From positions 88,749 through 126,925 of the forward strand of contig CAZUBM010000003.1 in NCBI GenBank assembly GCA_964618805.1: a DNA stretch of 38,177 bases, in the 5' to 3' direction. Source of the stretch: an uncultured Nitrososphaerota archaeon (GTDB lineage: Archaea; Korarchaeota; Korarchaeia; Korarchaeales; Korarchaeaceae). The position numbers and the translations under genes were made by a program. The notes below the pieces were generated by a model. The model was not told the origin of the DNA and searched no databases. It saw only the letters and a list, made by a program, of their open reading frames with translations. Position 1 is the first letter of the stretch; the number at the start of each line of letters is the position of its first letter. This document shows, in pieces, positions 10,193-23,480 of the stretch.

Positions 10193-10504
10193 ATGAGTAA
10201 GAAAGAAGAAAGACGTTTTGATCTAATGAAGCACAAACTTGTGCCTAAGCATGTTATTGTATCAGAAAAGGAGAAGGAAGAAGTGATAAGAAAGTACGGT
10301 CCCCTGAAGTACTTCCCTAAAATTTCTGCTAAAGATCCGATAGTCCAGGAGATTGGTGCAAAGCCTGGAGACTTGATTAGAATTGAGAGACCCGATTCTA
10401 TTGTTCCATTTTATCGTGTGGTTGAAGGAATTCCTTTAGTAGTTCCCCGGGCGGCTAAGGAGAAGATCAGGGAAGAATTTTCTGATATTGAGGTGGAGGG
10501 TTAG
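10193..10504 (+). CDS. rpoH: DNA-directed RNA polymerase subunit Rpo5 (H), with C-terminal extension
   Basis: HKLVPKH, PKISAKDP, GAKPGDLIRIER and YRVV motifs. First gene of the RNAP operon. Confidence 0.96.
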   Translation: MSKKEERRFDLMKHKLVPKHVIVSEKEKEEVIRKYGPLKYFPKISAKDPIVQEIGAKPGDLIRIERPDSIVPFYRVVEGIPLVVPRAAKEKIREEFSDIEVEG

Positions 10505-10507
10505 AAG

Positions 10508-13500
10508 CTGGCTACAAATAACGAGAATTTTGAGGTTTCTGAAGATATTGATTTTTATCCTATTGTAAAGGCCTACTTTAGAGAGCATTCCCTCGTAGAT
10601 CCACAAATAGAGTCCTTCAATAGGTTCTTAGAGAGAGGTTTGCAGGAAGTAGTTGATTCTCTAGGGGAGATAGAGCTTATCGAGGGGTACAAGCTTATCC
10701 TAGGAAAAATTGAGGTTGGAGAACCAGAAATAACAGAATTTGATGGCTCTAGGACATCAGTTACTCCAATGGAAGCTCGAATTAGAAAGCTTACCTATCA
10801 AGCACCTCTCTATTTGGAGATAAAGGTATATGGAGCGGGAATGGAACTTCATAGAGAGAGCGTCAAGATAGGTTACCTTCCTTTGATGGTTAAGTCTAAG
10901 AAATGCATCCTACATGGGCTTTCCTCAGAGGAGCTAGCTGAGCTAGGTGAAGATCCTTTAGATCCAGGAGGTTATTTCATAGTAAATGGATCAGAAAGAG
11001 TGCTTGTGATGCGAGATGATATAGCTCCCAATAAGATAATTGTGGAAGAGAAGCCAGCAAAGAGCAAGGCATATTCACACGTAGCTCAGGTAATCTCAAG
11101 TAAGGCTGGATTAAGAAGCAGGCTCTTCCTGGAGTACTATCCACGTGATGGCACGATAAAGGCCTCCTTCTGGACTTTAACAAAAATTCCTGTGGCCATC
11201 CTTCTTAAAGCCCTTGGGCTGGAAAGAGACGCCGACATCCTAAAGGCAATCTCAAGCGATGAAGAAATTGCAAATATGTTCATATACAGCTTAGGAGACG
11301 CTGTCAGGAAGCTGATGCTTGGAAAAAAGATGGAAGGAGAGACCATAAGGGAAATGGCATTGGACTACATAGGGAGAAGGCTCGCAAGAGGAGCTCCGAA
11401 GAGAGATAGGATAGCTATTGCAAAGGATTTCCTTCAGAACAGGTTCCTGATACATATCGGGACCACTGAGGCTGATAACATAAAGAAAGCATATTACCTA
11501 ACTAAAATGATCGAGAAACTACTTAAGGTGGTTAGTGGCAGGCAGCCTCCTGACGATAGAGACCATTTCGCCAATAAGAGAATAAGATTGGCAGGAGATC
11601 TGATGCAGGAAGCCTTTAGGTATGCATTCTACCAGCTTGTCCTTAGGACCAGAAGGAAGGCAGAGGCCTTGATAAGCAGCGGCGTATATGAAATAAGTCC
11701 AAGGAGGTTGGTGTCTGGAGAAGGTCAGATTACAAGCAAATTAATCAGTTGTCTCTCAACGGGAATATGGCCAAGGGGCGAGCTAGGAATAAGCCAGAAC
11801 CTGGACAGAACTAACTACATAGCAACACTACAGCATTTGAGAAGGGTTAATTCGCCACTTCCATCCGGTCTTCCACTTCATGAGGCAAGACAGATTCACG
11901 GAACATCAATCGGGAGGCTTTGTCCACTTGAAACTCCTGAGGGGACGAATGTGGGCCTCGTAAGAACCTTAGCTACTTTTGCTGATGTTACTTTTGGGAT
12001 AGATCCCAAGCCCATAATCGAAATGCTGTATGAACTAGGAGTAAAGCCGATTGAGGAAGCTACCCCTGAGGAAGTTGGTTCTCTAACTCCTGTCTTCGTA
12101 AATGGTAATATAGTAGGGCTTACAGACTCTCCAAAGGAGATAATAGCGAAACTTAAGCAAAGGAGATCAGAACTCGATCCCGAAGTAAACATGGCTTACC
12201 GAGAGGAAGAAAACACTGTAATAATTAATGCTGACGAAGGAAGGGCTAGAAGGCCACTTATCCCTGTTAACAAGATTAAGGAAGCTATATCTCTCTTAAA
12301 TAAGGTTGAATCAGGCGAGATAAAGTTCTCAGACCTTGTTAAGATGGGAATTGTAGAGCTGCTCGATGCAGATGAAGAGGAATCGGCTCTGATCGCTCAG
12401 AGTATTGATGAGATCACTCCTGAGCACACCCATCTAGACTTTGCTCCTTACATGATGTTTGGAGTTGCCGCAGGAGAGATCCCCTTTGCAGAACACAACG
12501 CAATTCCGAGGGATATCATAGGTAGTAACATGATAAGGCAGGGCCTAGGACCTTACTCCACAAATTGGAGACTTAGAATGGATAGCAGGGCCTTCTTGCT
12601 CTACTATCCTCAAAGACCGATAGTCAGAACAAGGATTGATGAGATCACAGGGTATTATCTGAGACCTTCTGGACAGAACCTTGTTGTAGCACTCCTTCCA
12701 ATGGATGGCTATAACATGGATGATGCCCTTGTGATGAACAAAGGCTCAATAGATCGAGGATTGGCCAGAGGAATATTCTTCAGGACATATGAGGCTGTTG
12801 CAAAAAGACAAGCTATTGTGGAAGGCGATAGGTTCGAGAACCCCTATCCTCTTGATGGAGTAATGGGAAAGAGGGAGGAGGACAATTACAAGAAATTAGA
12901 TGATGATGGAATAGTAAGTCCAGAGACAGAAGTTGTTGGAGGAGATGTTCTAATAGGAAGAACAAGTCCTCCTAGATTTTCTCCTGAACTTATTGGTGGA
13001 GGAGGGATGCCCTATGCATTTGAGAGAAGGGATACCTCCGTAAGCATGAGAGCATGGGAGGAGGGAGTGATCTCAGACGTCGTTCTTGCAACTACTATAG
13101 AAGGAGAGAAGATGGTAAGAGTAACGGTGAGAGACACAAGGCCCCCCGAAATAGGAGACAAGTTTGCCACAAGACATGGTCAGAAAGGAGTAATTGGAAT
13201 GATATATAACCAGGAGGACATGCCATTTACTGAAGAAGGTATAACTCCTGACATAATACTGGATCCCCATGCAATTCCGTCTAGAATGACGATAGGTCAG
13301 TTGATAGAAATACTTGCAGGCAAGGTAGGAGCTTTAGAGGGCAGATTTGTGGACGGTACTCCCTTCATATCAGAGGAGATTGAAGATTTGGAAGAAGCTC
13401 TCAAGAAGCTGGGCTTTGAGCCATCCGGCAAGGAAGTAATGTACGATGGAAGAACTGGTAAAATGATTCAAGCAAAGATATTCATCGGAATAAGCTTCTA

Positions 13501-13891
13501 TCAGAGGCTAAAGCACATGGTAAAGGATAAGATCCATGCCAGAGCTAGGGGCCAGGTTCAGGTTCTGACAAGACAGCCTGTAGAAGGAAGGGCAAGGGGA
13601 GGAGGCTTAAGACTTGGAGAGATGGAGGGAGAAGTCTTACTCGCACATGGTGCAGCAGCTAGCTTAAGAGATAGGTATATTGAGAGCTCCGATAAGACTC
13701 TTGTTTATGTCTGTAAGAAGTGCGGATCTTTAGCCTTCTTCAACTCACTTACAAACTCCTTCTTCTGTCCGAGATGTAGGGAGGCTGTTGAGGTGATGCC
13801 CTGGATCACAGGTTATGCAACAGTGCTCTTTACACAGGAACTAATGACAGGACTTATAGATGTAAGGCTGCGGGTGGAGGAGGATCTTTGA
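10508..13891 (+). CDS. rpoB: DNA-directed RNA polymerase subunit Rpo2 (B), unsplit; probable non-canonical CTG start
   Basis: DPGGYFIVNGSERV, GRLCPLETPEG, GDKFATRHGQKG, PHAIPSRMT, GGLRLGEME. The conserved N-terminus (IVKAYFREHSLVDPQIESFNRFLERGLQ) lies upstream of the track start at 10640. The start coordinate is inferred. Confidence 0.96.
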   Translation: MATNNENFEVSEDIDFYPIVKAYFREHSLVDPQIESFNRFLERGLQEVVDSLGEIELIEGYKLILGKIEVGEPEITEFDGSRTSVTPMEARIRKLTYQAPLYLEIKVYGAGMELHRESVKIGYLPLMVKSKKCILHGLSSEELAELGEDPLDPGGYFIVNGSERVLVMRDDIAPNKIIVEEKPAKSKAYSHVAQVISSKAGLRSRLFLEYYPRDGTIKASFWTLTKIPVAILLKALGLERDADILKAISSDEEIANMFIYSLGDAVRKLMLGKKMEGETIREMALDYIGRRLARGAPKRDRIAIAKDFLQNRFLIHIGTTEADNIKKAYYLTKMIEKLLKVVSGRQPPDDRDHFANKRIRLAGDLMQEAFRYAFYQLVLRTRRKAEALISSGVYEISPRRLVSGEGQITSKLISCLSTGIWPRGELGISQNLDRTNYIATLQHLRRVNSPLPSGLPLHEARQIHGTSIGRLCPLETPEGTNVGLVRTLATFADVTFGIDPKPIIEMLYELGVKPIEEATPEEVGSLTPVFVNGNIVGLTDSPKEIIAKLKQRRSELDPEVNMAYREEENTVIINADEGRARRPLIPVNKIKEAISLLNKVESGEIKFSDLVKMGIVELLDADEEESALIAQSIDEITPEHTHLDFAPYMMFGVAAGEIPFAEHNAIPRDIIGSNMIRQGLGPYSTNWRLRMDSRAFLLYYPQRPIVRTRIDEITGYYLRPSGQNLVVALLPMDGYNMDDALVMNKGSIDRGLARGIFFRTYEAVAKRQAIVEGDRFENPYPLDGVMGKREEDNYKKLDDDGIVSPETEVVGGDVLIGRTSPPRFSPELIGGGGMPYAFERRDTSVSMRAWEEGVISDVVLATTIEGEKMVRVTVRDTRPPEIGDKFATRHGQKGVIGMIYNQEDMPFTEEGITPDIILDPHAIPSRMTIGQLIEILAGKVGALEGRFVDGTPFISEEIEDLEEALKKLGFEPSGKEVMYDGRTGKMIQAKIFIGISFYQRLKHMVKDKIHARARGQVQVLTRQPVEGRARGGGLRLGEMEGEVLLAHGAAASLRDRYIESSDKTLVYVCKKCGSLAFFNSLTNSFFCPRCREAVEVMPWITGYATVLFTQELMTGLIDVRLRVEEDL

Positions 13892-13904: not shown

Positions 13905-16900
13905 ATGTCTTCATTAATAACTCCCTCTCCTAGAAGGGAAGAAGCCATCAGCTATGTGCTAAGGGGACTTCAATTTGGGCTGATGTCCCCTCAAGACATT
14001 AGAAAAATAGGTATGATAGAGATCAGAGAGCCTGCTGCTTACGATGAGGCTGGCATGCCCGTTCAGGGTGGAGTCCTTGATCCAAGGTTAGGGACCATAA
14101 ATCCAAGACAGAGATGTCCCACTTGTGGCAATTATCCGCAGCATTGCCCAGGTCATTTTGGAAGGATAGAACTCGCAAAACCAGTCATTAATATAGGGTA
14201 TTCGAGGTTATTGAAGTACATTCTTAACATGACCTGCCCTCAATGCGGCAAGGTTTTACTTCCGGATAATGAGAGAAAGGAATTAATTAGGAAGGCAAGG
14301 AAGTTCTGGGAAGAGCATCCGAATAAGAAAATAGATGATGAGATATTCAAGGAAGCCCAAAAGAAGATAAACAAATACCTAAGTAAATCGGATAAATGCC
14401 CCCATTGCGGTGCGAGAGTTGAACTCGTAGACCTAAAAGAGTTCTATAAGTTCATAGTTAAGGAACCAGAACCCAGACGATTATGGCCTAACGAGATCAG
14501 GGATAGACTTGAGAGGATACCTGACGAAGATGCTATGATCTTAGGGTTCAATCCTGAAAGAGCCAGACCCGAATGGATTGTAATAACAGTCCTATTAGTG
14601 CCTCCTCCCACCGTTAGGCCTTCCATATTCCTCGAAACTGGGGAAAGATCTGAAGACGATCTAACCCATCTTCTTGTGGACATAATTAAGGCAAATCAGA
14701 AATTGAGTGAATCTATTGCCTCCGGAGCTCCTGATAGCGTTATAGAAGGTGAATGGGAGCTACTTCAGTATTCGGTAGCTGTCTTTTTCCACAATGCAGC
14801 TACTGGTTTGCCTGTAGCTACGCAAAGGGGAAGTAACAGGCCTTTAAAGGCCTTATTCCAGAGATTGAGTGGGAAAGAGGGAAGATTAAGGAAGAACTTG
14901 ATAGGAAAGAGGGTTGATTTCTCCAGCAGAACTGTAATATCTCCTGATCCTATGATAGGTGTTGATGAAGTTGGCGTTCCTGTTGAAATAGCTAAGGTTC
15001 TTACAATTCCAGAATATGTAAATGAATGGAACATAGAGCAGCTAAAGGATCTCGTTTTGAGGGGGCCAAATGAGTACCCTGGCGCTAACTACATAAGGAA
15101 GAAGGGAGAGACAAGGCCCATAAGCCTTAAGGTACTGAAAAGAGATGTTTTAGAGAGGGAAGCAGAGGCATTAGAGCCAGGAGATGTCGTTGAAAGACAT
15201 CTCCTAAATGGAGACTACGTTCTATTTAACAGACAACCTTCTCTTCACAAGCTCTCCATGATGAGCCATAAGGTTAGGGTTCTACCGGGTTCAACCTTTA
15301 GGGTCAACCCTGGGGCATGTGTTCCATATAATGCAGATTTCGACGGAGACGAGATGAATCTCCACGCTCTACAGCTAATGGAGGCAAGGATTGAAGCAGA
15401 GGAATTGATGAGTGTGAAAAAGAACTTGTTGTCTCCAAGAACTGGGGGCTCGATTATTGGAGCAAAGCAGGATCTCATATCTGCTGCATACATTTTGACT
15501 AAGAAAGGCTCCGTTTACACACGTGAGGAAACCTGTGACATCCTAGCAAAGGCTGGCATTACAGAGCTACCAGAGCCAGCCATAAAGAAGCCCGTCGAGC
15601 TATGGACAGGTAAGCAGATTTTCTCTGCCCTCCTGCCTAAAGGTCTTATGTTCGAAGGAAGAGCTGCTGTCTGTGAGGGATGCAGTAAGTGCCTCAAAGA
15701 GGCATGTCCCTACGATGCATATGTTATCATAAAGAACGGAGAGCTCTTAAGAGGGGTTATTGACGATGACATTATCGGCACCCTTGTAAAGGCTAAGTTA
15801 ACGCTAATTGACGTCATAATTAGAGACTATGGGGAGGATGAAGCAGTTAATTTCCTAAACAGAACCATAAGAATGCTTGCTAAGATAGCAGAACTTCAAG
15901 GCATAACGATGTCCCTTAACGAGCTTAGGATGCCAAAGGACTTCTATAAAAAGCTGAGCGAAGTCTTTGAGACGGCATATAAGGATACTTTGGAGAGAGT
16001 TAAGGAATTTGAAACCAGAAGAGCAAGAGTAAGGATGCCCAGAACTAAGGAGGAGATCATAAGGGCATTAATGGAGGAAAGGCTTCTTGACTTTAAGATC
16101 ACAAAGACACTTGACAAGCTGAGGTCTGAGGTTCATGATCTTGTTAAGAGGTATGCAGATCCAAACAGCGACCCGATAATAATGGCAAAAACTGGCGCTA
16201 GAGGTTCTCTCTCAAATCTAGCTCAGGTTGTAGGTTCTGTCTGGCAACAATCCGTTAAGAGTAAAATTGGTTTCGTTTTAACAAGTGGTAGACCTAGGAA
16301 GGGGTTCAAGGATAGGGTCCTATCTTACTTTAAGCCTGGAGATCTTACTTTGGAGGCAAGGGGTTTCGTTAAAAACGGGTATTATGTTGGACTGCGGCCA
16401 GCAGAATTCATCTTTCACTCTATGGCAAGCAGAGATAGCTTGATAGATAAGGGAAGAAGAACGCAGGATAGTGGATACTTCTACAGGAGGATTGCAAACG
16501 CCTTAAAAGACCTATACGTAGCATATGATGGTACAGTTAGGGATTCAGAAGGCAGGATATTCCAATTTCTATTTGGCGGAGACGGATTAGATCCGTTAAA
16601 GATGTTTAGAGGCCATTTAGTCGATTATGATTCGATAATCTCAAAGTTTGTAGAACCTAAACGAGGAGCATCTTTGAAGAAGCTTAAAAAGCTTGTTGAG
16701 AAGAAAGGTTCACCTATAGAACTCGCAGAAAAGCTTTACAAAGCAAAAGCAACTCTTGCAGAGGCAGAAAAGGTAATCGAAGAGGTTAAGAAGAGTATGG
16801 AAAGGGCAAAGATAGAACCTCTCACCCCAATAGGGATAATCTGCGCTCAAAGCATAGCAGAGCCAACAACTCAGATGGTATTGAGAACATTCCATGCGCC

Positions 16901-17888
16901 AGGAGTACTTGCTATGGACGTTACTAGGGGGGTAGAGAGGTTCAAAGAGATAGTTTTCTATGCGAGAACCAGTACTCCCATAATGAAGATCTATTTGAAG
17001 CCAGAGTGGAGCAAAGATGAAGAAAAGGTAAAGGAAGCCATCAGAAGGATAAAAGAGACAACTGTTAAGGACCTAATAACAGAATATAGGATAGATAACA
17101 GAGCTTTCGAGCTGATATTAAAGCCTCACAAGGAAAGGCTTGAGAAGGCAGGTTTAGACATGGAAAAGTTCATCTCATTGATTGAAAAGAAAGTTAAGAG
17201 GATCAGAGGAACTGTTGAACGAAGAGGAGACTCCATAGTAGTAAATATGAGGGAATTAGCAAAGCCAGGTGAGGAGTACAACTATCAAGCCCTCAGAAAG
17301 TGGTCTATGATGGTTGTGAGTGAGAGAATAGGAGGAATAAAAGGGATAAAGCAGGCAGTAGCTGAGCTTGTTAAAACTGAGAAGGGAGAGGAGTTCGTTA
17401 TAACAACACAAGGATCTAACCTAAAAGAGGTGTTAAAACTCGAATTTGTTGATCCTACAAGGACGACAACCAATGATTGTTCTGAGATAGCAGAAGTCTT
17501 CGGGATTGAAGCCGCCAGACAAAGTCTCTTGAACGAATTGTGGGAGGTCCTGAAGGAGCAAGGTCTTGAGGTTGATAGGCGCTATATCTCGTTAATTGCA
17601 GACGCTATGACTAGGAATGGAAACATAGAAGCAGTCAGGCTATCTGCGATGCACATACCTTCAGGATATTTCTCAGTAGCTAAGAGCCCATTGAGTCAGA
17701 TGGCTTTTGAGTGGACAAGACATGTAGCTTTGATTGCGGCACGCAAGGGAGAGGACAATCCAATAAACTCTCCTTTAGATGCGATAATTACGGGACAGAT
17801 TCCTCCCGTTGGAACTGGTATGGTCTCAGTTAGATGGGACTGGAAAAAGGCTAAGGAATTGTTAGCAGAGGTGGGAAGGAGTGTCTGA
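13905..17888 (+). CDS. rpoA: DNA-directed RNA polymerase subunit Rpo1 (A), unsplit A'+A''
   Basis: CPGHFGRIEL, LSGKEGRLRKNLIGKRVDFS, NRQPSLH, catalytic YNADFDGDEMN, then the A''-type AQSIAEPTTQMVLRTFH in the same ORF. Confidence 0.98.
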   Translation: MSSLITPSPRREEAISYVLRGLQFGLMSPQDIRKIGMIEIREPAAYDEAGMPVQGGVLDPRLGTINPRQRCPTCGNYPQHCPGHFGRIELAKPVINIGYSRLLKYILNMTCPQCGKVLLPDNERKELIRKARKFWEEHPNKKIDDEIFKEAQKKINKYLSKSDKCPHCGARVELVDLKEFYKFIVKEPEPRRLWPNEIRDRLERIPDEDAMILGFNPERARPEWIVITVLLVPPPTVRPSIFLETGERSEDDLTHLLVDIIKANQKLSESIASGAPDSVIEGEWELLQYSVAVFFHNAATGLPVATQRGSNRPLKALFQRLSGKEGRLRKNLIGKRVDFSSRTVISPDPMIGVDEVGVPVEIAKVLTIPEYVNEWNIEQLKDLVLRGPNEYPGANYIRKKGETRPISLKVLKRDVLEREAEALEPGDVVERHLLNGDYVLFNRQPSLHKLSMMSHKVRVLPGSTFRVNPGACVPYNADFDGDEMNLHALQLMEARIEAEELMSVKKNLLSPRTGGSIIGAKQDLISAAYILTKKGSVYTREETCDILAKAGITELPEPAIKKPVELWTGKQIFSALLPKGLMFEGRAAVCEGCSKCLKEACPYDAYVIIKNGELLRGVIDDDIIGTLVKAKLTLIDVIIRDYGEDEAVNFLNRTIRMLAKIAELQGITMSLNELRMPKDFYKKLSEVFETAYKDTLERVKEFETRRARVRMPRTKEEIIRALMEERLLDFKITKTLDKLRSEVHDLVKRYADPNSDPIIMAKTGARGSLSNLAQVVGSVWQQSVKSKIGFVLTSGRPRKGFKDRVLSYFKPGDLTLEARGFVKNGYYVGLRPAEFIFHSMASRDSLIDKGRRTQDSGYFYRRIANALKDLYVAYDGTVRDSEGRIFQFLFGGDGLDPLKMFRGHLVDYDSIISKFVEPKRGASLKKLKKLVEKKGSPIELAEKLYKAKATLAEAEKVIEEVKKSMERAKIEPLTPIGIICAQSIAEPTTQMVLRTFHAPGVLAMDVTRGVERFKEIVFYARTSTPIMKIYLKPEWSKDEEKVKEAIRRIKETTVKDLITEYRIDNRAFELILKPHKERLEKAGLDMEKFISLIEKKVKRIRGTVERRGDSIVVNMRELAKPGEEYNYQALRKWSMMVVSERIGGIKGIKQAVAELVKTEKGEEFVITTQGSNLKEVLKLEFVDPTRTTTNDCSEIAEVFGIEAARQSLLNELWEVLKEQGLEVDRRYISLIADAMTRNGNIEAVRLSAMHIPSGYFSVAKSPLSQMAFEWTRHVALIAARKGEDNPINSPLDAIITGQIPPVGTGMVSVRWDWKKAKELLAEVGRSV

Positions 17889-18210
17889 ACTCGATTCTGA
17901 GATTTGGTTAGCGAGAAAAACCGGTAGGATAATAATGGGCCTTAAGAAAGTGAGAAGATTGCTCTTAGCAGGAAACGAGAAGCCAAAGCTTATTATCCTA
18001 GCAAATAACATAGATGAAGAAGCTCGAGCTGAATTAGGGTATCTAGCAAAACTCTCTCAGGTTCCGGTATTGGTATATGAGCAGGGAAGTTTACAATTGG
18101 GTAGAGCGCTACATAAACCCTTTTTTGTCTCGGTTGCTGCTATATTAGATCAGGGTGAGTCCTCTATTCTAGAGATGGTGGAGGAGGGGGGAGGTAAAGA
18201 TTCCGAATAG
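17881..18210 (+). CDS. rpl30e: 50S ribosomal protein L30e
   Basis: KTGRIIMG, KLIILANN and SLQLGRALHKPFFVSVAAILDQGESSIL, in the canonical operon position. Confidence 0.95.
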   Translation: MSELDSEIWLARKTGRIIMGLKKVRRLLLAGNEKPKLIILANNIDEEARAELGYLAKLSQVPVLVYEQGSLQLGRALHKPFFVSVAAILDQGESSILEMVEEGGGKDSE

Positions 18211-18217
18211 AAGGATC

Positions 18218-18655
18218 GTGTTAGGGCCTAGACAATTGAACCTATTGAAAATGTTTCGATACATGACAGGAGTTGCCTCGATAGATGTGGTCATAGATGA
18301 CGAGTACGACAGGTTGATCTTCATTGTTAGCAAGGGAGATTTAGGTAGAGCAATAGGTAGGGGCGGGAGAAAGCTTGAAATAATGAGAAAAATCATTAGA
18401 AGAGATCTCGGCTACACGGTAGAAGTCGTAGAATATGATAATGATCTAAAGGGCTTCATAAAGAATTTATTGAGCCCTGCGAGAGTAAGTGAAATAGAGT
18501 TCATGGGAGAAGGCGAAGGGAAAGTAGCTTACGTCAAAGTACCAGAGGAGGACCTTGGAATAGCTATTGGGAAGGATGGAAGACGAATAAGGAGAGCAAG
18601 GTTGCTTGTAAGAAGATGGTTTAAACTCGGAAATGTTAAAATAGGCTCCTCATAA
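18218..18655 (+). CDS. nusA: Archaeal NusA (two KH domains)
   Basis: LGRAIGRGG, VEVVEY, FIKNLLSPARV and LGIAIGKDGRRI. The real start may be ATT at 18200. Confidence 0.95.
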   Translation: MLGPRQLNLLKMFRYMTGVASIDVVIDDEYDRLIFIVSKGDLGRAIGRGGRKLEIMRKIIRRDLGYTVEVVEYDNDLKGFIKNLLSPARVSEIEFMGEGEGKVAYVKVPEEDLGIAIGKDGRRIRRARLLVRRWFKLGNVKIGSS

Positions 18656-18687
18656 TCTGGTAACATTAAGTGAAAGGGTGAACAAAC

Positions 18688-19128
18688 GTGGGCAAGAAAG
18701 CACCGCTAGGTCTCTATGCTGCAAGAAGACTAAAGGAGAAGTATAAGTGGAAACGCTGGCATGATTACGAGTATAAAAGGAAGCACTTGCGTCTAAGGGA
18801 GAAATATGATCCTTTAGGCGGTGCTCCAATGGCGAGAGGAATAGTTCTGGAAAAGGTAGGTCTAGAAGCCAGACAACCACACTCTGGTCTAAGAAAAGCT
18901 GTTAAGGTCCAATTGGCAAAAACTGGAGCAATTGTATTAGCTTTTGCTCCTGGAGACGGTGCTCTGAATGTAATAGACGAACATGATGAGGTTTTAATTG
19001 CAGGAATAGGAGGATCAAGAGGTAGAAGCCTTGGAGACATACCTGGAGTAAGATATCAAGTCATAAAGGTCAATAACGTTGACCTTCAAGCTATTTTGAA
19101 AGGAAAGAAAGAAAAGCCAACGAGGTGA
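18688..19128 (+). CDS. rps12: 30S ribosomal protein S12
   Basis: [42 protein letters not shown]. Confidence 0.98.
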
Positions 19129-19132
19129 TTTC

Positions 19133-19774
19133 ATGAGCGAGGACGAGAGTAAAGAAATTGAAGAAAAGAAGCCTCAAATCAAACTGTTCGGGAAGTGGCC
19201 ATACGAGGGCCTTGAAGTAAAAAATCCTGCTTTGAAGAAAGTGATTTGTCTTAGACCAGTTTATCTCCCGCATACCGGCGGAAGACATGAACATAAACGT
19301 TTTGGGAAGCTTAAAGTCCCTATAGTTGAGAGACTAGTTAACAGACTTATGTCCCAAGCCATTAATGCTGGTATCAAGAGGGATAGGGTGAACAGTAAAA
19401 ATCCTGGAAAAAAGCTAAAAGCCCTTAGAACAGTAAAATACGCCTTTGAGATAATCGAACTTAGAACGGGCAAGAATCCCATTCAAGTTTTCATAAAGGC
19501 GATAGAGAACGCTGCAATTAGAGAGGAAGTTACCAGGATAATATATGGAGGGGTCAGCTATTTCCATTCAGTGGATACATCACCTACTAGAATGCTTGAC
19601 CTAGCAATCAGACATATAGCTCAAGGAGCAGCTATGAAGGCCTTTAGAAGTCCTATGTCGTTAGCTGAGGCTCTTGCTGAGGAAATAATTGCAGCTGCGA
19701 ACTATGATAGGGTAAAGAGTCATGCAATAAAGAGGAAGGAGGAGATAGAGCGTATAGCTCTCAGTGCTAGGTAA
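19133..19774 (+). CDS. rps7: 30S ribosomal protein S7
   Basis: [59 protein letters not shown] ribosome-binding site. Confidence 0.98.
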
Positions 19775-20124: not shown

Positions 20125-21420
20125 TTAGCTCGATATCAACTTGTTGAATAAGGATTTACTAACTAAGATTATGCCAAAGAAGGATACAGTTACGGTGATT
20201 AGGACAAAAAAGCTGAGTATCATTATCTTGGTGTGATATCTTGAGACTGCCTTATTTAGTGTCAAGTTAGCCTTTGAAAGCCCTGACGCTGCCATTTCAA
20301 ACAGAGAGGCAGCATTTTCAGGTTCTTGGGGTATCTTCTCCTTTATGTCTTCTGCATTCCTAAGAGCTGTTGTGATGTTTTCAATATCAGATTTGGTGAG
20401 TATCTCTGAATATTCCTCAAAAGTTTGATTCAAAGACTCCAATAAAATCGAAATTTCGTCTTGATATGCCTTCAAAATGATCTCAATAGCAGCAGCCGAG
20501 GCATTAAACGAATCTCTGGCGAGGAGAAACACAGAATTGTTCGCCTCTCGAAAGGCTTCGATCGCCTGCTTTATCCTGATTTCAGCAAATTGAATGGATA
20601 ATGATGCTTCTTCAGGGATTTCTATCTGTCCCTTAGCTGCGCTGTAAAGGGCACTAGCAAACTCTAGAGATTGATTTGCTATGAGGATTTGGTTCCAGGC
20701 CTCCTCCTCTTTGAATCCAAATTTCCTTGATACATAAATTACCACGCGATCTCTTTTCTCACCTATAATATAATTAAGAACAGCCTCTATTTCGAAAATA
20801 CCCTCCTCCCTTGGCGCAGTAAGATTGAAGTTAAGGTTACCAGATAGTTTGCTTAGACTTAGGTTCTCTACGATCACTGTATCATTTATCCTTATTGCCA
20901 GTGTTGGGTTTTCCTCTCCAGGTAAATCTTCGATGATATATGAGAGCATTAATTCAAAAGGCTCATCAGGCGTAAGATTATGCTTATTTGCGTCCATTTT
21001 AAGACCTACCTGAGGTGTTGCTTTTTCTACAAGAACATTCACTTCGTCAGATTCTAAAGTCTCTTGTTTTCCCTCATTTAAATCGTAAATTCTTACAATA
21101 GCTTTTAAGTTAGCAAAAGCTGGTGCTTTTGCTCCTAATGGAACTCTTAAGGATATTTCTTGGGAAAGATTGGTCCCAGGGGGCATCTCTAAACCAACTT
21201 CTTGTAGCGGAGTTGATCCCCAAGGAGTTCTCAACCTTACCCAGAGAACTTTAATTGGCCCGCTTTCTGGAGGATTGGATATCTTAACGGTAGTTGTGAA
21301 CTCAAATCCCGCATAAACCTTTTCTGGTATTATAAGCTCTATGTTTGGCTGAGGAATTGCTAGAACACAGCCATATGTCATTGTTAGAAGAATTAGAAAT
21401 ATTGGCAATAGATATCGCAT
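20125..21420 (-). CDS. Hypothetical exported, C-terminally membrane-anchored protein
   Basis: Signal-peptide-like N-terminus, beta-rich Ig-like first half, Ala/Glu-rich helical second half, many N-x-S/T sequons and a C-terminal hydrophobic helix. Confidence 0.75.
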   Translation of the reverse strand: MRYLLPIFLILLTMTYGCVLAIPQPNIELIIPEKVYAGFEFTTTVKISNPPESGPIKVLWVRLRTPWGSTPLQEVGLEMPPGTNLSQEISLRVPLGAKAPAFANLKAIVRIYDLNEGKQETLESDEVNVLVEKATPQVGLKMDANKHNLTPDEPFELMLSYIIEDLPGEENPTLAIRINDTVIVENLSLSKLSGNLNFNLTAPREEGIFEIEAVLNYIIGEKRDRVVIYVSRKFGFKEEEAWNQILIANQSLEFASALYSAAKGQIEIPEEASLSIQFAEIRIKQAIEAFREANNSVFLLARDSFNASAAAIEIILKAYQDEISILLESLNQTFEEYSEILTKSDIENITTALRNAEDIKEKIPQEPENAASLFEMAASGLSKANLTLNKAVSRYHTKIMILSFFVLITVTVSFFGIILVSKSLFNKLISS

Positions 21421-21509
21421 TATAAGCTCTTAGAATCATGTGCCATAAAATCTTTAAAGAGCATTTCACCATTGATTAACTTTGGTTGGAGTTAGAAAGA
21501 CAAGTCAGC

Positions 21510-23480
21510 ATGCCAGTTTTAGGGATAGATCTGCATTCTGGCTCTCCAAAATCCGCTAAACCTTGCAGATATTCTGTAGTAGTCATGAGAGATGGCAAAG
21601 TAATACTTGAGAGGAGAGGGGTTGATCTCCATGAAATCTTAAAAATAGCATCGGAGATAGGTCCCTGCATCATTGCCACCGATAACATATTCGAACTTGC
21701 TCCGAACATCTCTGGTTTAAGGAGATTTTTCCTGAAATTGCCTTCTGGCACGAAAATTGTTCAGGTAAACAAAGAAGGGACTTTCTATGAGAAATTAAGT
21801 TATGTAGCAAAGAAAGAAGGCTTAGTTATTGGGAAAAAGGCAGACTCTCTCACTGAAGCTAGGGTAGCTGCTATGCTTGCGTCGAAGGGCATAGGAAGCG
21901 AGGTCATTCTCTTCGAACCTGAATGCAGGATCGTAGTGGCACGAAATGCTAGCATAAAGAAGGGCGGATCTGGCACCAATAGATGGAGACGGATGATAGA
22001 GGCAGCGATACTCAACGAAACAAATAGGATAGCGTCCTCCTTAGAAGAGAAAGGCATTGAATACGATTTATATGTACATCAAGCAGAGGGTGGGTTAAGA
22101 AGAGCCGAATTTGTTGTATACGCACCAGAATCCAACGTAATCGATGTAGTTAAACCGAGAGAAAATGGTTCAATCAAAGTAATAATTACAAGAAAAATGA
22201 AGAGAAAGTTAGAATTTGCAGATTCTCGTAAAACTACGCAATCAAGGCCTCTAATAGTTTCCATAGATCCAGGAGCTTCTCTTGGACTTGCTATATCAGA
22301 TTTAGAGGGAAATATCTTAGCTCTTCAAACATTAAGGATGCCCTCAAGGTCGCAAATAATAGGAGAGATAATGAAGCACGGAAGGCCTGTTCTCATCACT
22401 ACGGATGTTTTTCCAATACCTGAAAGGGTTAAAGAGATAGCTAAGATCTTTAACGCTAGAATCGAACCAGCTGCAGATCTTCTGACTCTAAAGGAGAAAG
22501 AAAAGGTAGTTCAGGAATTTGAAGAAGGATCGAAGTTAAAAGCATCAACTTCTCATGAACGAGACGCTCTGGCTGCTCTACTTATAACCTATAAGAGATT
22601 AAATGTCCTCTTCAAGAAGGCAGAGGCTAGAGCTCTTGAAAAAGGAGTTCCTTTCACTATTAGAGTTAGAGAGTTGCTGGTTAAAGGAAAATCAATAAGC
22701 GAAGCTTTGGAACAGGAGCTAAAAGCTGAGTCTCCAGTACAAAGGAGAGAGGTTAAAAAAGTAAAGAGGCGGAGGTCCGCAGCTACAAGCCTCTTGCTTC
22801 AGAGAATTAGAGAGTTAGAAGACAGATTATCGTATTACGAGGAACTGATTCATAAGAAAGATGAGGAGATAGCAGAACTTATGGAACAAATCAGACAGTT
22901 AAGGGAAGAAATCAACCTGGAAATCGAGAGAGATCGAAGAATTGCCAAACGAGATGCAAGAATTAAAGAGTTGGAGCAAGAACTTAGAAGAGCAAAATGG
23001 AGAAACGAGCTACTCTTTTCTAAACTCAAAGAAATGGAGAGAATCTTAAAGGAACCCCCAACCGGTTGGATTCAGGTTTTGGTCTTTAGTAAACTTTCTA
23101 AGCAGGTTTTAGAACTTGCTGTGTCAGAAAAGAAGATAAGAGAAGGAGATGTGCTGCTCGTCATCGATGCAAGCGGTATGGGAAAAACTGCTGTTGAAAT
23201 GTTATCAGAACTAGGGGTTATGGCATTGATCTGGAAGAGAAATCCCCCACCAACAGAGGTAATTCATGAGTTGGAGAGAAGGGGCATTAATGTGATATGT
23301 GGTAGGGATATCGATATATGGTGGAGAGGAGGTATCCCCTACATCAAAGGAGAGATTTTGATGAGAGATCTTCCCGATTCTAAACAGATTTCTAGGAAAA
23401 GCAGAGTTAAACTAGAGGACATATTGAGGGAATACAGGAGTAGGATACTTGAAAATGAAGTTGGAGAAAAGGAGGGATAA
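21510..23480 (+). CDS. DUF460 / COG2433-type protein (RNase H-like folds plus coiled coil)
   Basis: VLGIDL, IIATDNIFEL, KGGSG.NRWRR, LIVSIDPG, HERDALAA and a long coiled coil. ATG at 21510 preferred to TTG at 21486. Confidence 0.85.
   Translation: MPVLGIDLHSGSPKSAKPCRYSVVVMRDGKVILERRGVDLHEILKIASEIGPCIIATDNIFELAPNISGLRRFFLKLPSGTKIVQVNKEGTFYEKLSYVAKKEGLVIGKKADSLTEARVAAMLASKGIGSEVILFEPECRIVVARNASIKKGGSGTNRWRRMIEAAILNETNRIASSLEEKGIEYDLYVHQAEGGLRRAEFVVYAPESNVIDVVKPRENGSIKVIITRKMKRKLEFADSRKTTQSRPLIVSIDPGASLGLAISDLEGNILALQTLRMPSRSQIIGEIMKHGRPVLITTDVFPIPERVKEIAKIFNARIEPAADLLTLKEKEKVVQEFEEGSKLKASTSHERDALAALLITYKRLNVLFKKAEARALEKGVPFTIRVRELLVKGKSISEALEQELKAESPVQRREVKKVKRRRSAATSLLLQRIRELEDRLSYYEELIHKKDEEIAELMEQIRQLREEINLEIERDRRIAKRDARIKELEQELRRAKWRNELLFSKLKEMERILKEPPTGWIQVLVFSKLSKQVLELAVSEKKIREGDVLLVIDASGMGKTAVEMLSELGVMALIWKRNPPPTEVIHELERRGINVICGRDIDIWWRGGIPYIKGEILMRDLPDSKQISRKSRVKLEDILREYRSRILENEVGEKEG

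Follow-up and report, generated by a model that had tools for sequence, protein, structure and literature searches.

Lineage-wide changes in the mobile active-centre elements of the single RNA polymerase of Korarchaeaceae

The rpo1 locus and the active-centre elements of its product

The window analysed in this work, a stretch of 38,177 nucleotides (nt) from an uncultured hot-spring archaeon of the family Korarchaeaceae (assembly GCA_964618805.1, contig CAZUBM010000003.1, positions 88,749 to 126,925), contains the gene rpo1 of the RNA polymerase (RNAP), whose product deviates at many conserved positions of the active centre. These changes are real and lineage-wide, are concentrated in the mobile elements of the active centre and are now conserved. 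The gene lies at 13905..17888 on the plus strand, as do all features below for which no other strand is given. It is unsplit, with A' and A'' in one frame of 1327 amino acids (aa) that contains the Pfam Rpb1 domains 1-5 in order (E values of 1.5e-86, 7.7e-66, 6e-40, 2.4e-13 and 6e-66). The relatives have fused genes too, and Korarchaeota are listed with an unsplit rpoA in Table 1 of PMC3082918.

The genes around rpo1, assigned by Pfam, follow the usual archaeal operon order rpoH-rpo2-rpo1-L30e-nusA-S12-S7. When the entire assembly (62 contigs with 2.18 Mb, 93.7% complete, 3.4% contamination) was searched with the protein, a single place matched, and no second rpo1 was found at this level of completeness. 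Because of this single match and the canonical operon, the product of 13905..17888 is the single, essential, unsplit Rpo1; it belongs to the housekeeping RNAP, as the earlier note on this DNA, made from the letters alone, had supposed. Likewise, the 99% complete, single-contig genome of a relative (G013) contains only an rpo1 of the korarchaeal-signature type. Loss of TFS was rejected as a correlate of the Rpo1 changes, since its gene was found here and also in 16 of the 18 further genomes of the family.

Residue numbers were transferred by gap-free alignments: the M. jannaschii A' number is the window number minus 32, the yeast Rpb1 number is the window number minus 22 in the bridge helix (BH), and it is the window number plus 88 in the trigger loop (TL). 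These offsets are consistent with the residue names in the mutagenesis papers, and the best PDB matches of aa 740-1030 had E values of 1e-44 to 1e-50. The BH, EFIFHSMASRDSLIDKGRRTQDSGYFYRRIANAL, covers aa 834-867 (16404..16505; alignment to solved RNAP chains). At its N-terminal hinge, A841-S842 (16425..16430) replaces GG, so that M-A-S-R-D-S occupies the place of the glycine hinge of canonical archaeal Rpo1, a deviation that we did not treat as a ground for exclusion. In the central "labile" region of the helix, K849-G850-R851 (16449..16457) replaces T-A-V. The canonical BH has four glycines and that of the window has two, one of which is new.

The TL with its C-terminal base helix, AQSIAEPTTQMVLRTFHAPGV...VTRGVERFKEI, was located by alignment at aa 981-1016 (16845..16952), and differs from the outgroup-conserved state in columns 985, 992, 999, 1008, 1010, 1011 and 1014. 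The funnel/F-loop string WQQSVKSKIGFVLTSGRPRKG (aa 780-800, nt 16242-16304) begins with WQQ (W780; 16242..16250) in place of the conserved GQQ, as placed by alignment. It includes an insert of 8 aa, IGFVLTSG (16266..16289), opposite a gap in solved structures, and without counterpart in the solved Pyrococcus RNAP chains or in human and yeast Pol III, to which BH and TL align gap-free. Meanwhile, the metal A-binding motif NADFDGD (aa 476-482; 15330..15350, read from the translation) and the catalytic TL residues Q990, L993 and H997 are intact.

The earlier note had described a co-diverged BH, TL and F-loop at 16260..16955. Every string that it quoted occurs in the translation of the plus-strand frame 13905..17888, and the elements lie inside that frame, but WQQSVKSKIGFVLTSGRPRKG begins 18 nt before 16260. 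The F-loop insertion is real, being 8 residues long and missing from solved structures and from all non-family loci shown, and the intact state of NADFDGD and of the TL Gln, Leu and His was correctly read.

Distribution and conservation of the changes

In a word-indexed protein search with aa 740-1030, the closest 21 protein clusters were 63-96% identical, after which identity dropped to 44%. Two of these clusters (P0011 and P0022, 63-65% identical) bear the source name "Candidatus Korarchaeum sp.", which points to the Korarchaeaceae. For family f1 (Korarchaeaceae), nine full-length sequences from five genera were compared, including that of the window; the Rpo1 proteins of these genera are 59-64% identical and likewise unsplit. 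A wider set comprised 16 family loci. The signature was present in all nine full-length members and in 16 of 16 loci wherever the element was covered (one locus ends inside the BH). Across these loci, the insert reads (I/V/L)GFVLTSG, the BH reads H(A/S)M(A/S/T)SR(D/E)SL(I/V)DKGRRT(Q/E)DSGYFYRR and the TL reads QMVLRTFHAPG(V/L)...VT(R/H/Y)GVERFKE, with Ser842 in all 16. They are no sequencing artefact, as separately made assemblies from the same genus (Rpo1 97% and 95% identical) and from four further genera show them too; a lack of support by relatives, which the earlier note had named as a possible refutation, is not seen. The fixation across relatives that it had proposed to check is present in all nine members.

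The distribution over the five korarchaeal families (f1-f5) suggests that the changes accumulated stepwise along this lineage. T849K, G845S/T, Q855D/E and Ala841 occur in all five, including f5, in which the gene is split. A850G, Q860Y and the TL change A999P are limited to f1-f3, and G985A is limited to f1 and f2. Only f1 has G842S, V851R, T992V, L1010V and P1011E, along with changed residues at 1008, 1014, 1018 and 1019 and the 8-aa insert, which was found neither in f2-f5 nor in any outgroup locus shown. G780W is the youngest change; it is carried by the window, by two genomes (G002 and G001) and by two database clusters (P0003 and P0004), and it is absent from G003 of the same genus. A FastTree phylogeny of Rpo1 without funnel, BH and TL, with Rpo2 columns added, placed f1, f2 and f3 together and f4 and f5 apart. 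The mean root-to-tip distance was 1.01 for f1 and 0.64-0.92 for the other groups (midpoint root, so that the order is undated). Among the replacements listed in the earlier note, EG to DS holds for G845S, which is phylum-wide, but E844D is specific to the genus; TAV to KGR is present and fixed in the family, but its T849K is old, phylum-wide and not particular to this genome. A family-like metagenome cluster of four sequences (P0023) has the insert and most of the signature.

Three other archaeal phyla served as outgroups. PF04998 was matched in 26 of 26, 59 of 61 and 61 of 61 genomes, and 30 loci of each phylum were inspected; none of them showed Lys849, Ser842, Pro999, Glu1011 or the insert. 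Full-length comparison used 46 outgroup genomes chosen for long contigs (two phyla with 14 each and one with 18), eight further f1 genomes and six of f2-f5. A profile built from the Rpo1 and Rpo2 of the window served to align all frames, and columns conserved in at least 95% of outgroups were called ultra-conserved. K849, S842, G850, P999 and E1011 were found in 0 of the 46 outgroup genomes and, among the genomes sampled, are confined to the Korarchaeota-level group; the earlier note's own counter-case, that such substitutions are common across archaea, does not hold for these five states in this sample. In one outgroup phylum, several genomes (G107, G125, G113 and others) had rpo1 frames of 1498-1927 aa or matches split over distant places, which could reflect inteins or insertions.

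Among 315 ultra-conserved Rpo1 columns, 44 differ in all nine f1 sequences. Within aa 765-870 and 975-1020, 21 of 72 such columns were changed, compared with 23 of 243 in the rest of the protein (Fisher odds ratio 3.9, p 8e-5); BH alone accounted for 9 of 25 and TL alone for 9 of 27, and the funnel segment alone, with 3 of 19, was not enriched. A version with 90 partial outgroup loci gave 18 of 66 vs 14 of 161. As a background, 37 of 293 ultra-conserved columns were changed in Rpo2 (45 outgroups, one having no rpo2 in the stretch) and 11 of 139 in L30e, NusA, S12 and S7 pooled (17-24 outgroups with the gene in the fetched 3.5 kb). A location-blind scan also had its densest windows at the BH, with 7 of 15 columns changed at 842-860 and 13 of 40 at 806-973.

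Identity values describe the same segments from another side. Within f1, BH and TL were 0.92 identical and the rest of Rpo1 0.65; between outgroup phyla, the values were 0.83-0.89 and 0.49-0.58; from f1 to the outgroups, they were 0.54 and 0.42. Being conserved inside the family and diverged from the outgroups, the BH and TL appear to be under a constraint that shifted and was not relaxed. On the 66 region columns, f1 deviated at 20-21 and a more distant family-like cluster (P0004) at 23, eukaryotic Pol II and Pol III at 11-16, DPANN-type sequences at 9-13, and outgroup loci at no more than 6 (median 0).

A HMMER search with aa 760-1030 against 1.84 billion representatives gave 8568 matches at E of at most 0.001, with a top score of 392 bits for the family's own cluster and 197 bits for the next. 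Of the 150 representatives most similar to the query, the 149 apart from the family's own cluster were used to count residue states, 106-148 of them being scorable per column. At position 842, Gly was found in 148 of 148 and Ser in none. Thr was found in 142 of 148 at position 849 (Lys in one), Ala in 145 of 148 at 850 (Gly in one), and Val, Cys, Ile or Leu in 148 of 148 at 851 (Arg in none). The TL was similar, with Thr in 105 of 108 at position 992 (Val in one), Ala in 96 of 107 at 999 (Pro in one) and Pro in 103 of 106 at 1011 (Glu in none), and the Ala of the window at 985 recurred in one representative. At position 780, Gly was found in 134 of 136 and Trp in none. Two of the window's states are globally unremarkable: Ala841 (47 of 148) and Asp or Glu at 855, which is the majority state (119 of 148) and usual in eukaryotic enzymes. 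Of the two hinge glycines that the earlier note had counted among the most conserved positions, only the second is invariant, the first being not strongly conserved. Large subunits with a partly similar BH were also seen, namely P0032 and P0136, with (G/A)(S/G)RD.LVDTA..T.DSGYFYRR, and P0118, with DAMNSRENLMDKSLHT; these may be further lineages with a changed hinge or cases of convergence.

The remodelling that the earlier note had seen in BH, TL and F-loop is there, but it extends further, to Rpo2 and to two more segments of Rpo1. In Rpo2, the segment QHLRRVNSPLPSGLPLHEARQI at 11831..11896, which we take to be fork loop 2, is changed in six ultra-conserved columns (within 443-464), from SPLSRSQPHFEARDLH in the outgroups to SPLP(S/P/A)GLPLHE.RQ(I/T)H in the family. 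The link-domain segment PFAEHNAIPRDII, placed by alignment at 12482..12520, changed from HN(Q/S)SPRN(T/S) to HN(A/N)(I/L)PRDII, that is, Ser to Ile or Leu and Asn to Asp, with the invariant Arg kept. At 13613..13636, LGEMEGEV stands for the canonical FGEMERDC, with columns 1037, 1042, 1043 and 1044 changed in all family members. These three segments hit columns that are invariant in the 45 outgroup genomes. Additionally, the motif GLVKNL is changed in the family from Lys to Arg and from Asn to Ser or Thr; by residue spacing, this Asn may be the one replaced in the "fork loop 3" of N. equitans. In Rpo1, several conserved columns (290, 293, 294, 298, 307, 311 and 322) are changed in aa 284-326 (14754..14882), presumably the switch-2 region. 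The segment aa 1236-1272 (17610..17720), which we assume to be the switch-1 region, is 6 residues longer, and its canonical IGRHG(V/I)SGEK..LARAAFE is unrecognisable, with GRHG lost. PMC3270539 describes a single connected unit, in which the link domain ties the nucleoside triphosphate (NTP) to the F-loop and to the N-terminal end of the BH; the link domain, the F-loop and this end of the BH are all changed in the family.

The neighbouring genes are ordinary by their Pfam matches. The gene rpoH (Rpo5) lies at 10226..10504 (RNA_pol_Rpb5_C, E 6.5e-18) and ends in a TAG stop at 10502-10504, and the unsplit rpo2 (RpoB) with seven Pfam Rpb2 domains lies at 10508..13891. The two genes share one frame with one stop between them, TAG in the window and TAA in G002. 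The first ATG, GTG or TTG of rpo2 stands at 10640, although the sequence before it already codes for about 45 conserved residues of the N-terminus. CTG is the second codon after the rpoH stop in the window and in G002, TTG stands there in relatives of genus g3, and a purine-rich stretch, GGTGGAGG(G), ends immediately before the stop. This suggests that rpo2 initiates at CTG 10508; stop read-through giving an RpoH-Rpo2 fusion is a less likely alternative. Downstream of rpo1, the genes of L30e, NusA-KH, S12 and S7 occupy 17881..19774 (Pfam). The other genes of the window are housekeeping genes as well (PolD DP2, both primase subunits, Nop5, fibrillarin, Trm1, thermosome, PGK and EF-1alpha). The Nop5-fibrillarin pair is separated from the S7 gene by two frames, one of 431 aa with no Pfam match (20125-21420, minus strand) and one of 664 aa with DUF460 as its sole Pfam match (21486-23480, plus strand).

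Proposed mechanical effects and alternative explanations

Many of the changed positions have been mutated in other enzymes. In the M. jannaschii enzyme, every replacement of G809 or G810 severely lowers activity, and G813 is less sensitive to substitution than these two (PMC2988716). Positions 817-820 form a third labile stretch of the BH, in which Q817 to Ser, Thr, Cys or Lys and V819 to Lys give superactive enzymes (PMC2988716). Q823D is superactive too; it imitates the Asp-Arg lock that bacterial enzymes have at the kinked C-terminal hinge (PMC2776397). At these positions, the window has Ala and Ser (809 and 810), Ser (813), Lys-Gly-Arg (817-819) and Asp (823). Tan et al. 2008 show Lys at 817 and Gly at 818 in pie charts as minor natural states among 171 sequences, so that single positions had been seen before, with the lineage uncommented.

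In yeast Pol II, nearly all substitutions in the A1087-G1088 linker of the TL are lethal, and most variants of F1086 and P1099 are loss-of-function (PMC5127505). The open TL is held in a pocket formed by A1076, M1079, T1080, G1097, L1101 and the BH residues I837 and L841; variants of A1076, M1079, G1097 and L1101 are reported as gain-of-function, and gain-of-function alleles of the BH suppress some loss-of-function alleles of the TL (PMC5127505). The window has Pro at 1087, Ala at 1086, Glu at 1099, Val at 1080, Phe at 1101, and in the BH, Phe at 837 and Ile or Val at 841.

We consider it probable that the korarchaeal enzyme is active, with compensated and re-tuned mechanics of BH and TL. The nucleotide-addition machinery would have been rebuilt stepwise in the korarchaeal lineage, in the BH, the TL and the funnel/F-loop and together with them, on the side of Rpo2, in fork loop 2, the link domain and the GEMERDC motif, and the rebuilt version would now be under strong purifying selection. 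The chemistry would be kept by NADFDGD, the TL Gln, Leu and His, BH R852 (M. jannaschii R820), the S-G-Y of the C-terminal hinge and the link-domain Arg. The mechanics would be altered by the loss of the N-terminal glycine hinge (GGREG to (A/S/T)SR(D/E)S) and by the new Gly in the central labile region (D-T-A-V to D-K-G-R). Lys at M. jannaschii 817 and Asp at 823, each superactivating singly, and Arg at 819, where Lys superactivates, would act as gain-type changes. The TL linker and base-helix changes at yeast A1087, F1086 and P1099, where variants are mostly loss-of-function or lethal, would act in the opposite direction, and the hydrophobic pocket of the open TL (yeast T1080, L1101, I837 and L841) is changed as well. 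Loss-type and gain-type changes may offset one another to give an active enzyme, with the hinge point probably shifted toward the centre of the helix and the balance of open and closed TL re-tuned. The compensatory remodelling proposed in the earlier note would agree with this published mutagenesis of other RNAPs.

The order of the changes is as expected for such a course. K849, D/E855 and G850 map to deeper nodes than the loss of the hinge Gly (S842) and the most radical TL changes (E1011); because the gain-type BH changes and G850 precede S842 and E1011, early changes may have made later ones tolerable. A more tentative part of this proposal, and the most specific one, is that the flexible point moved out of the N-terminal hinge into the middle of the BH. 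Equally speculative is the wider statement that Korarchaeaceae have the first natural cellular RNAP without the "invariant" BH glycine hinge, its flexible point two helical turns inward at Gly850, flanked by Lys and Arg-Arg, with a co-adapted TL linker, open-TL pocket, F-loop, link domain and fork loop 2. If true, it would mean an alternative, evolutionarily stable cycle of translocation and catalysis, with intermediates still alive in f4 and f5, then f3 and f2, then f1.

Several observations weigh against a compensated centre. As 8-13% of ultra-conserved columns are changed everywhere in the lineage, also in Rpo2 and in the pooled L30e, NusA, S12 and S7, a part of the signal belongs to the long branch, and the f1 root-to-tip distance is the largest in a tree made without BH and TL. 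The regions were defined after the earlier note had pointed there, and columns and related genomes are not independent in the enrichment statistics. The excess over protein-wide divergence, which that note had made a test of its proposal, stands when the regions are taken as given (29% vs 9.5% of ultra-conserved columns), but the location-blind permutation is marginal (p 0.15 for 15 columns, 0.18 for 25 and 0.04 for 40). The best-150 sample consists of the sequences most like the query, is not random and leaves bacteria unsampled; such sampling should, if anything, favour states shared with the window. The metagenome cluster P0023 keeps Gly842 and has the catalytic TL His changed to Arg (TFRAPGV), and S842 is thus not universal. 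Moreover, some mappings to the mutants are inexact, V819K being Lys where the window has Arg, and Q817K having been made from Gln, not Thr, and the step to compensation is drawn from single mutants of other enzymes. The predicted structures favour neither reading: AlphaFold2 gave a mean predicted local distance difference test score (pLDDT) of 64 for aa 690-1060 (48-row alignment), with BH and TL below 50, and of 73.7 for aa 128-1327, with values below 50 at 782-811 (insert), 840-863 (BH core), 981-1008 (TL) and the switch-like segments.

The changed columns in the background genes, the marginal scan and the long root-to-tip distance would also fit nearly neutral drift on a long branch in a family that evolved fast throughout, perhaps in small populations or with a community-dependent lifestyle, in which case the BH and TL changes would mean little for function and their clustering would be a selection effect of where one looked. 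We regard this as unlikely. Drift with relaxed constraint does not fit segments that are 0.83-0.89 identical between phyla, 0.92 identical in the family and 0.54 identical across, which speak for a shifted optimum, nor a density of change 3-4 times the background. Several states are unique against the 106-148 other scorable representatives, and in the enzymes of M. jannaschii and yeast, one substitution at such a position has severe effects.

A second alternative, to which we give slightly less credit than to drift, is directional adaptation of the DNA-binding cleft, through escape from a viral or cellular inhibitor or a new demand on speed, pausing or fidelity, with BH, TL, fork loop 2 and the switch-like segments as targets of selection and not as compensators. 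Archaeal viruses encode inhibitors that bind RNAP. The changed parts (BH, TL, fork loop 2, link domain and switch-like segments) all line the active-centre cleft, and the stepwise accumulation over nested clades would fit such a process. Against it, no inhibitor or partner was identified, nothing in the window suggests a special partner, and TFS is retained. Thermoadaptation was also judged unlikely as a cause, as the proteins of the hyperthermophilic Pyrococcus, Thermococcus and Desulfurococcales keep the canonical F-loop segment; in the one Desulfurococcales BH inspected, the second hinge Gly and D-T-A-V are canonical.

The 62 contigs and the estimated 3.4% contamination of the assembly might suggest an artefact, contaminating DNA or another paralogue, either specialised or in decay, in place of the working polymerase. 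This is highly improbable given the single copy, the intact 1327-aa frame with five Rpb1 domains, the canonical operon among other housekeeping genes, and the same signature in eight other genomes of five genera and in about 20 database clusters.

Significance and comparison with known RNA polymerases

The unsplit rpoA of Korarchaeota was already known, and the family-wide remodelling of the active centre is without a published description that we could find; full-text literature searches, which did not cover subscription journals, returned no account of korarchaeal BH and TL remodelling. A whole archaeal family breaks, in its only RNAP, an active-centre invariance that is otherwise near-complete in archaea and eukaryotes, and its sister families preserve intermediates, giving a natural, ordered series of epistatic changes. 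Because recombinant archaeal RNAP systems exist, this series could be rebuilt residue by residue. It makes several questions testable, namely whether the hinge position can be moved, which contacts among BH, TL, F-loop and link domain change together, and how much of the "universal" sequence is required. The family offers a natural test of how the moving catalytic parts of RNAP work; if the changes were neutral, the reading of conservation at these sites would need revision too.

Compared with the canonical archaeal Rpo1 (with solved structures from Pyrococcus furiosus, Thermococcus kodakarensis and Sulfolobus/Saccharolobus), the korarchaeal protein has the same domain order and operon, NADFDGD, the TL Gln, Leu and His and the BH S-G-Y. 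It differs from them in the unsplit gene, the lost glycines of the N-terminal BH hinge, D-K-G-R for D-T-A-V and the 8-aa funnel insert. In the TL, H(Y/F)AG and GLPRL of the canonical type are replaced by HAPG and GVERF, and the korarchaeal Rpo2 is altered in fork loop 2, the link domain and GEMERDC.

The nearest natural parallel is the RNAP of Nanoarchaeum equitans and other DPANN archaea, for which Nottebaum & Weinzierl 2021 (PMC8204694) described activity in vitro despite "radical substitutions" in the BH, the TL and fork loop 3. Both are housekeeping enzymes with clustered, lineage-wide changes at normally invariant positions of BH, TL and the Rpo2 fork loops. The residue set is different, and the word Korarchae does not occur in that paper. 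In the DPANN type, a proline stands in the BH (TPKSGY), while D-T-A and the second Gly of the hinge are retained, whereas the korarchaeal type has no BH proline, has lost the hinge Gly and has changed D-T-A-V. The window reads T-Q-D-S-G-Y at this place and does not belong to the Nanoarchaeota type. The korarchaeal family is also the more deviant of the two on the 66 region columns (20-21 vs 9-13).

Engineered enzymes touch the same positions. In M. jannaschii, these are G809, G810, G813, Q817, A818, V819, Q823 and M827 (PMC2776397, PMC2988716), and in the TL landscape of yeast Pol II, they are T1080, F1086, A1087, P1099 and L1101 (PMC5127505). The laboratory mutants are single or double, whereas the korarchaeal Rpo1 carries more than 20 such changes naturally together and fixed. 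Natural variants of the BH hinge are described in PMC2988716 for plant Pol IV and Pol V and a few bacteria, where they are proline gains in specialised paralogues or single strains. In contrast, the korarchaeal case is a loss of glycine in the only RNAP of a whole family.

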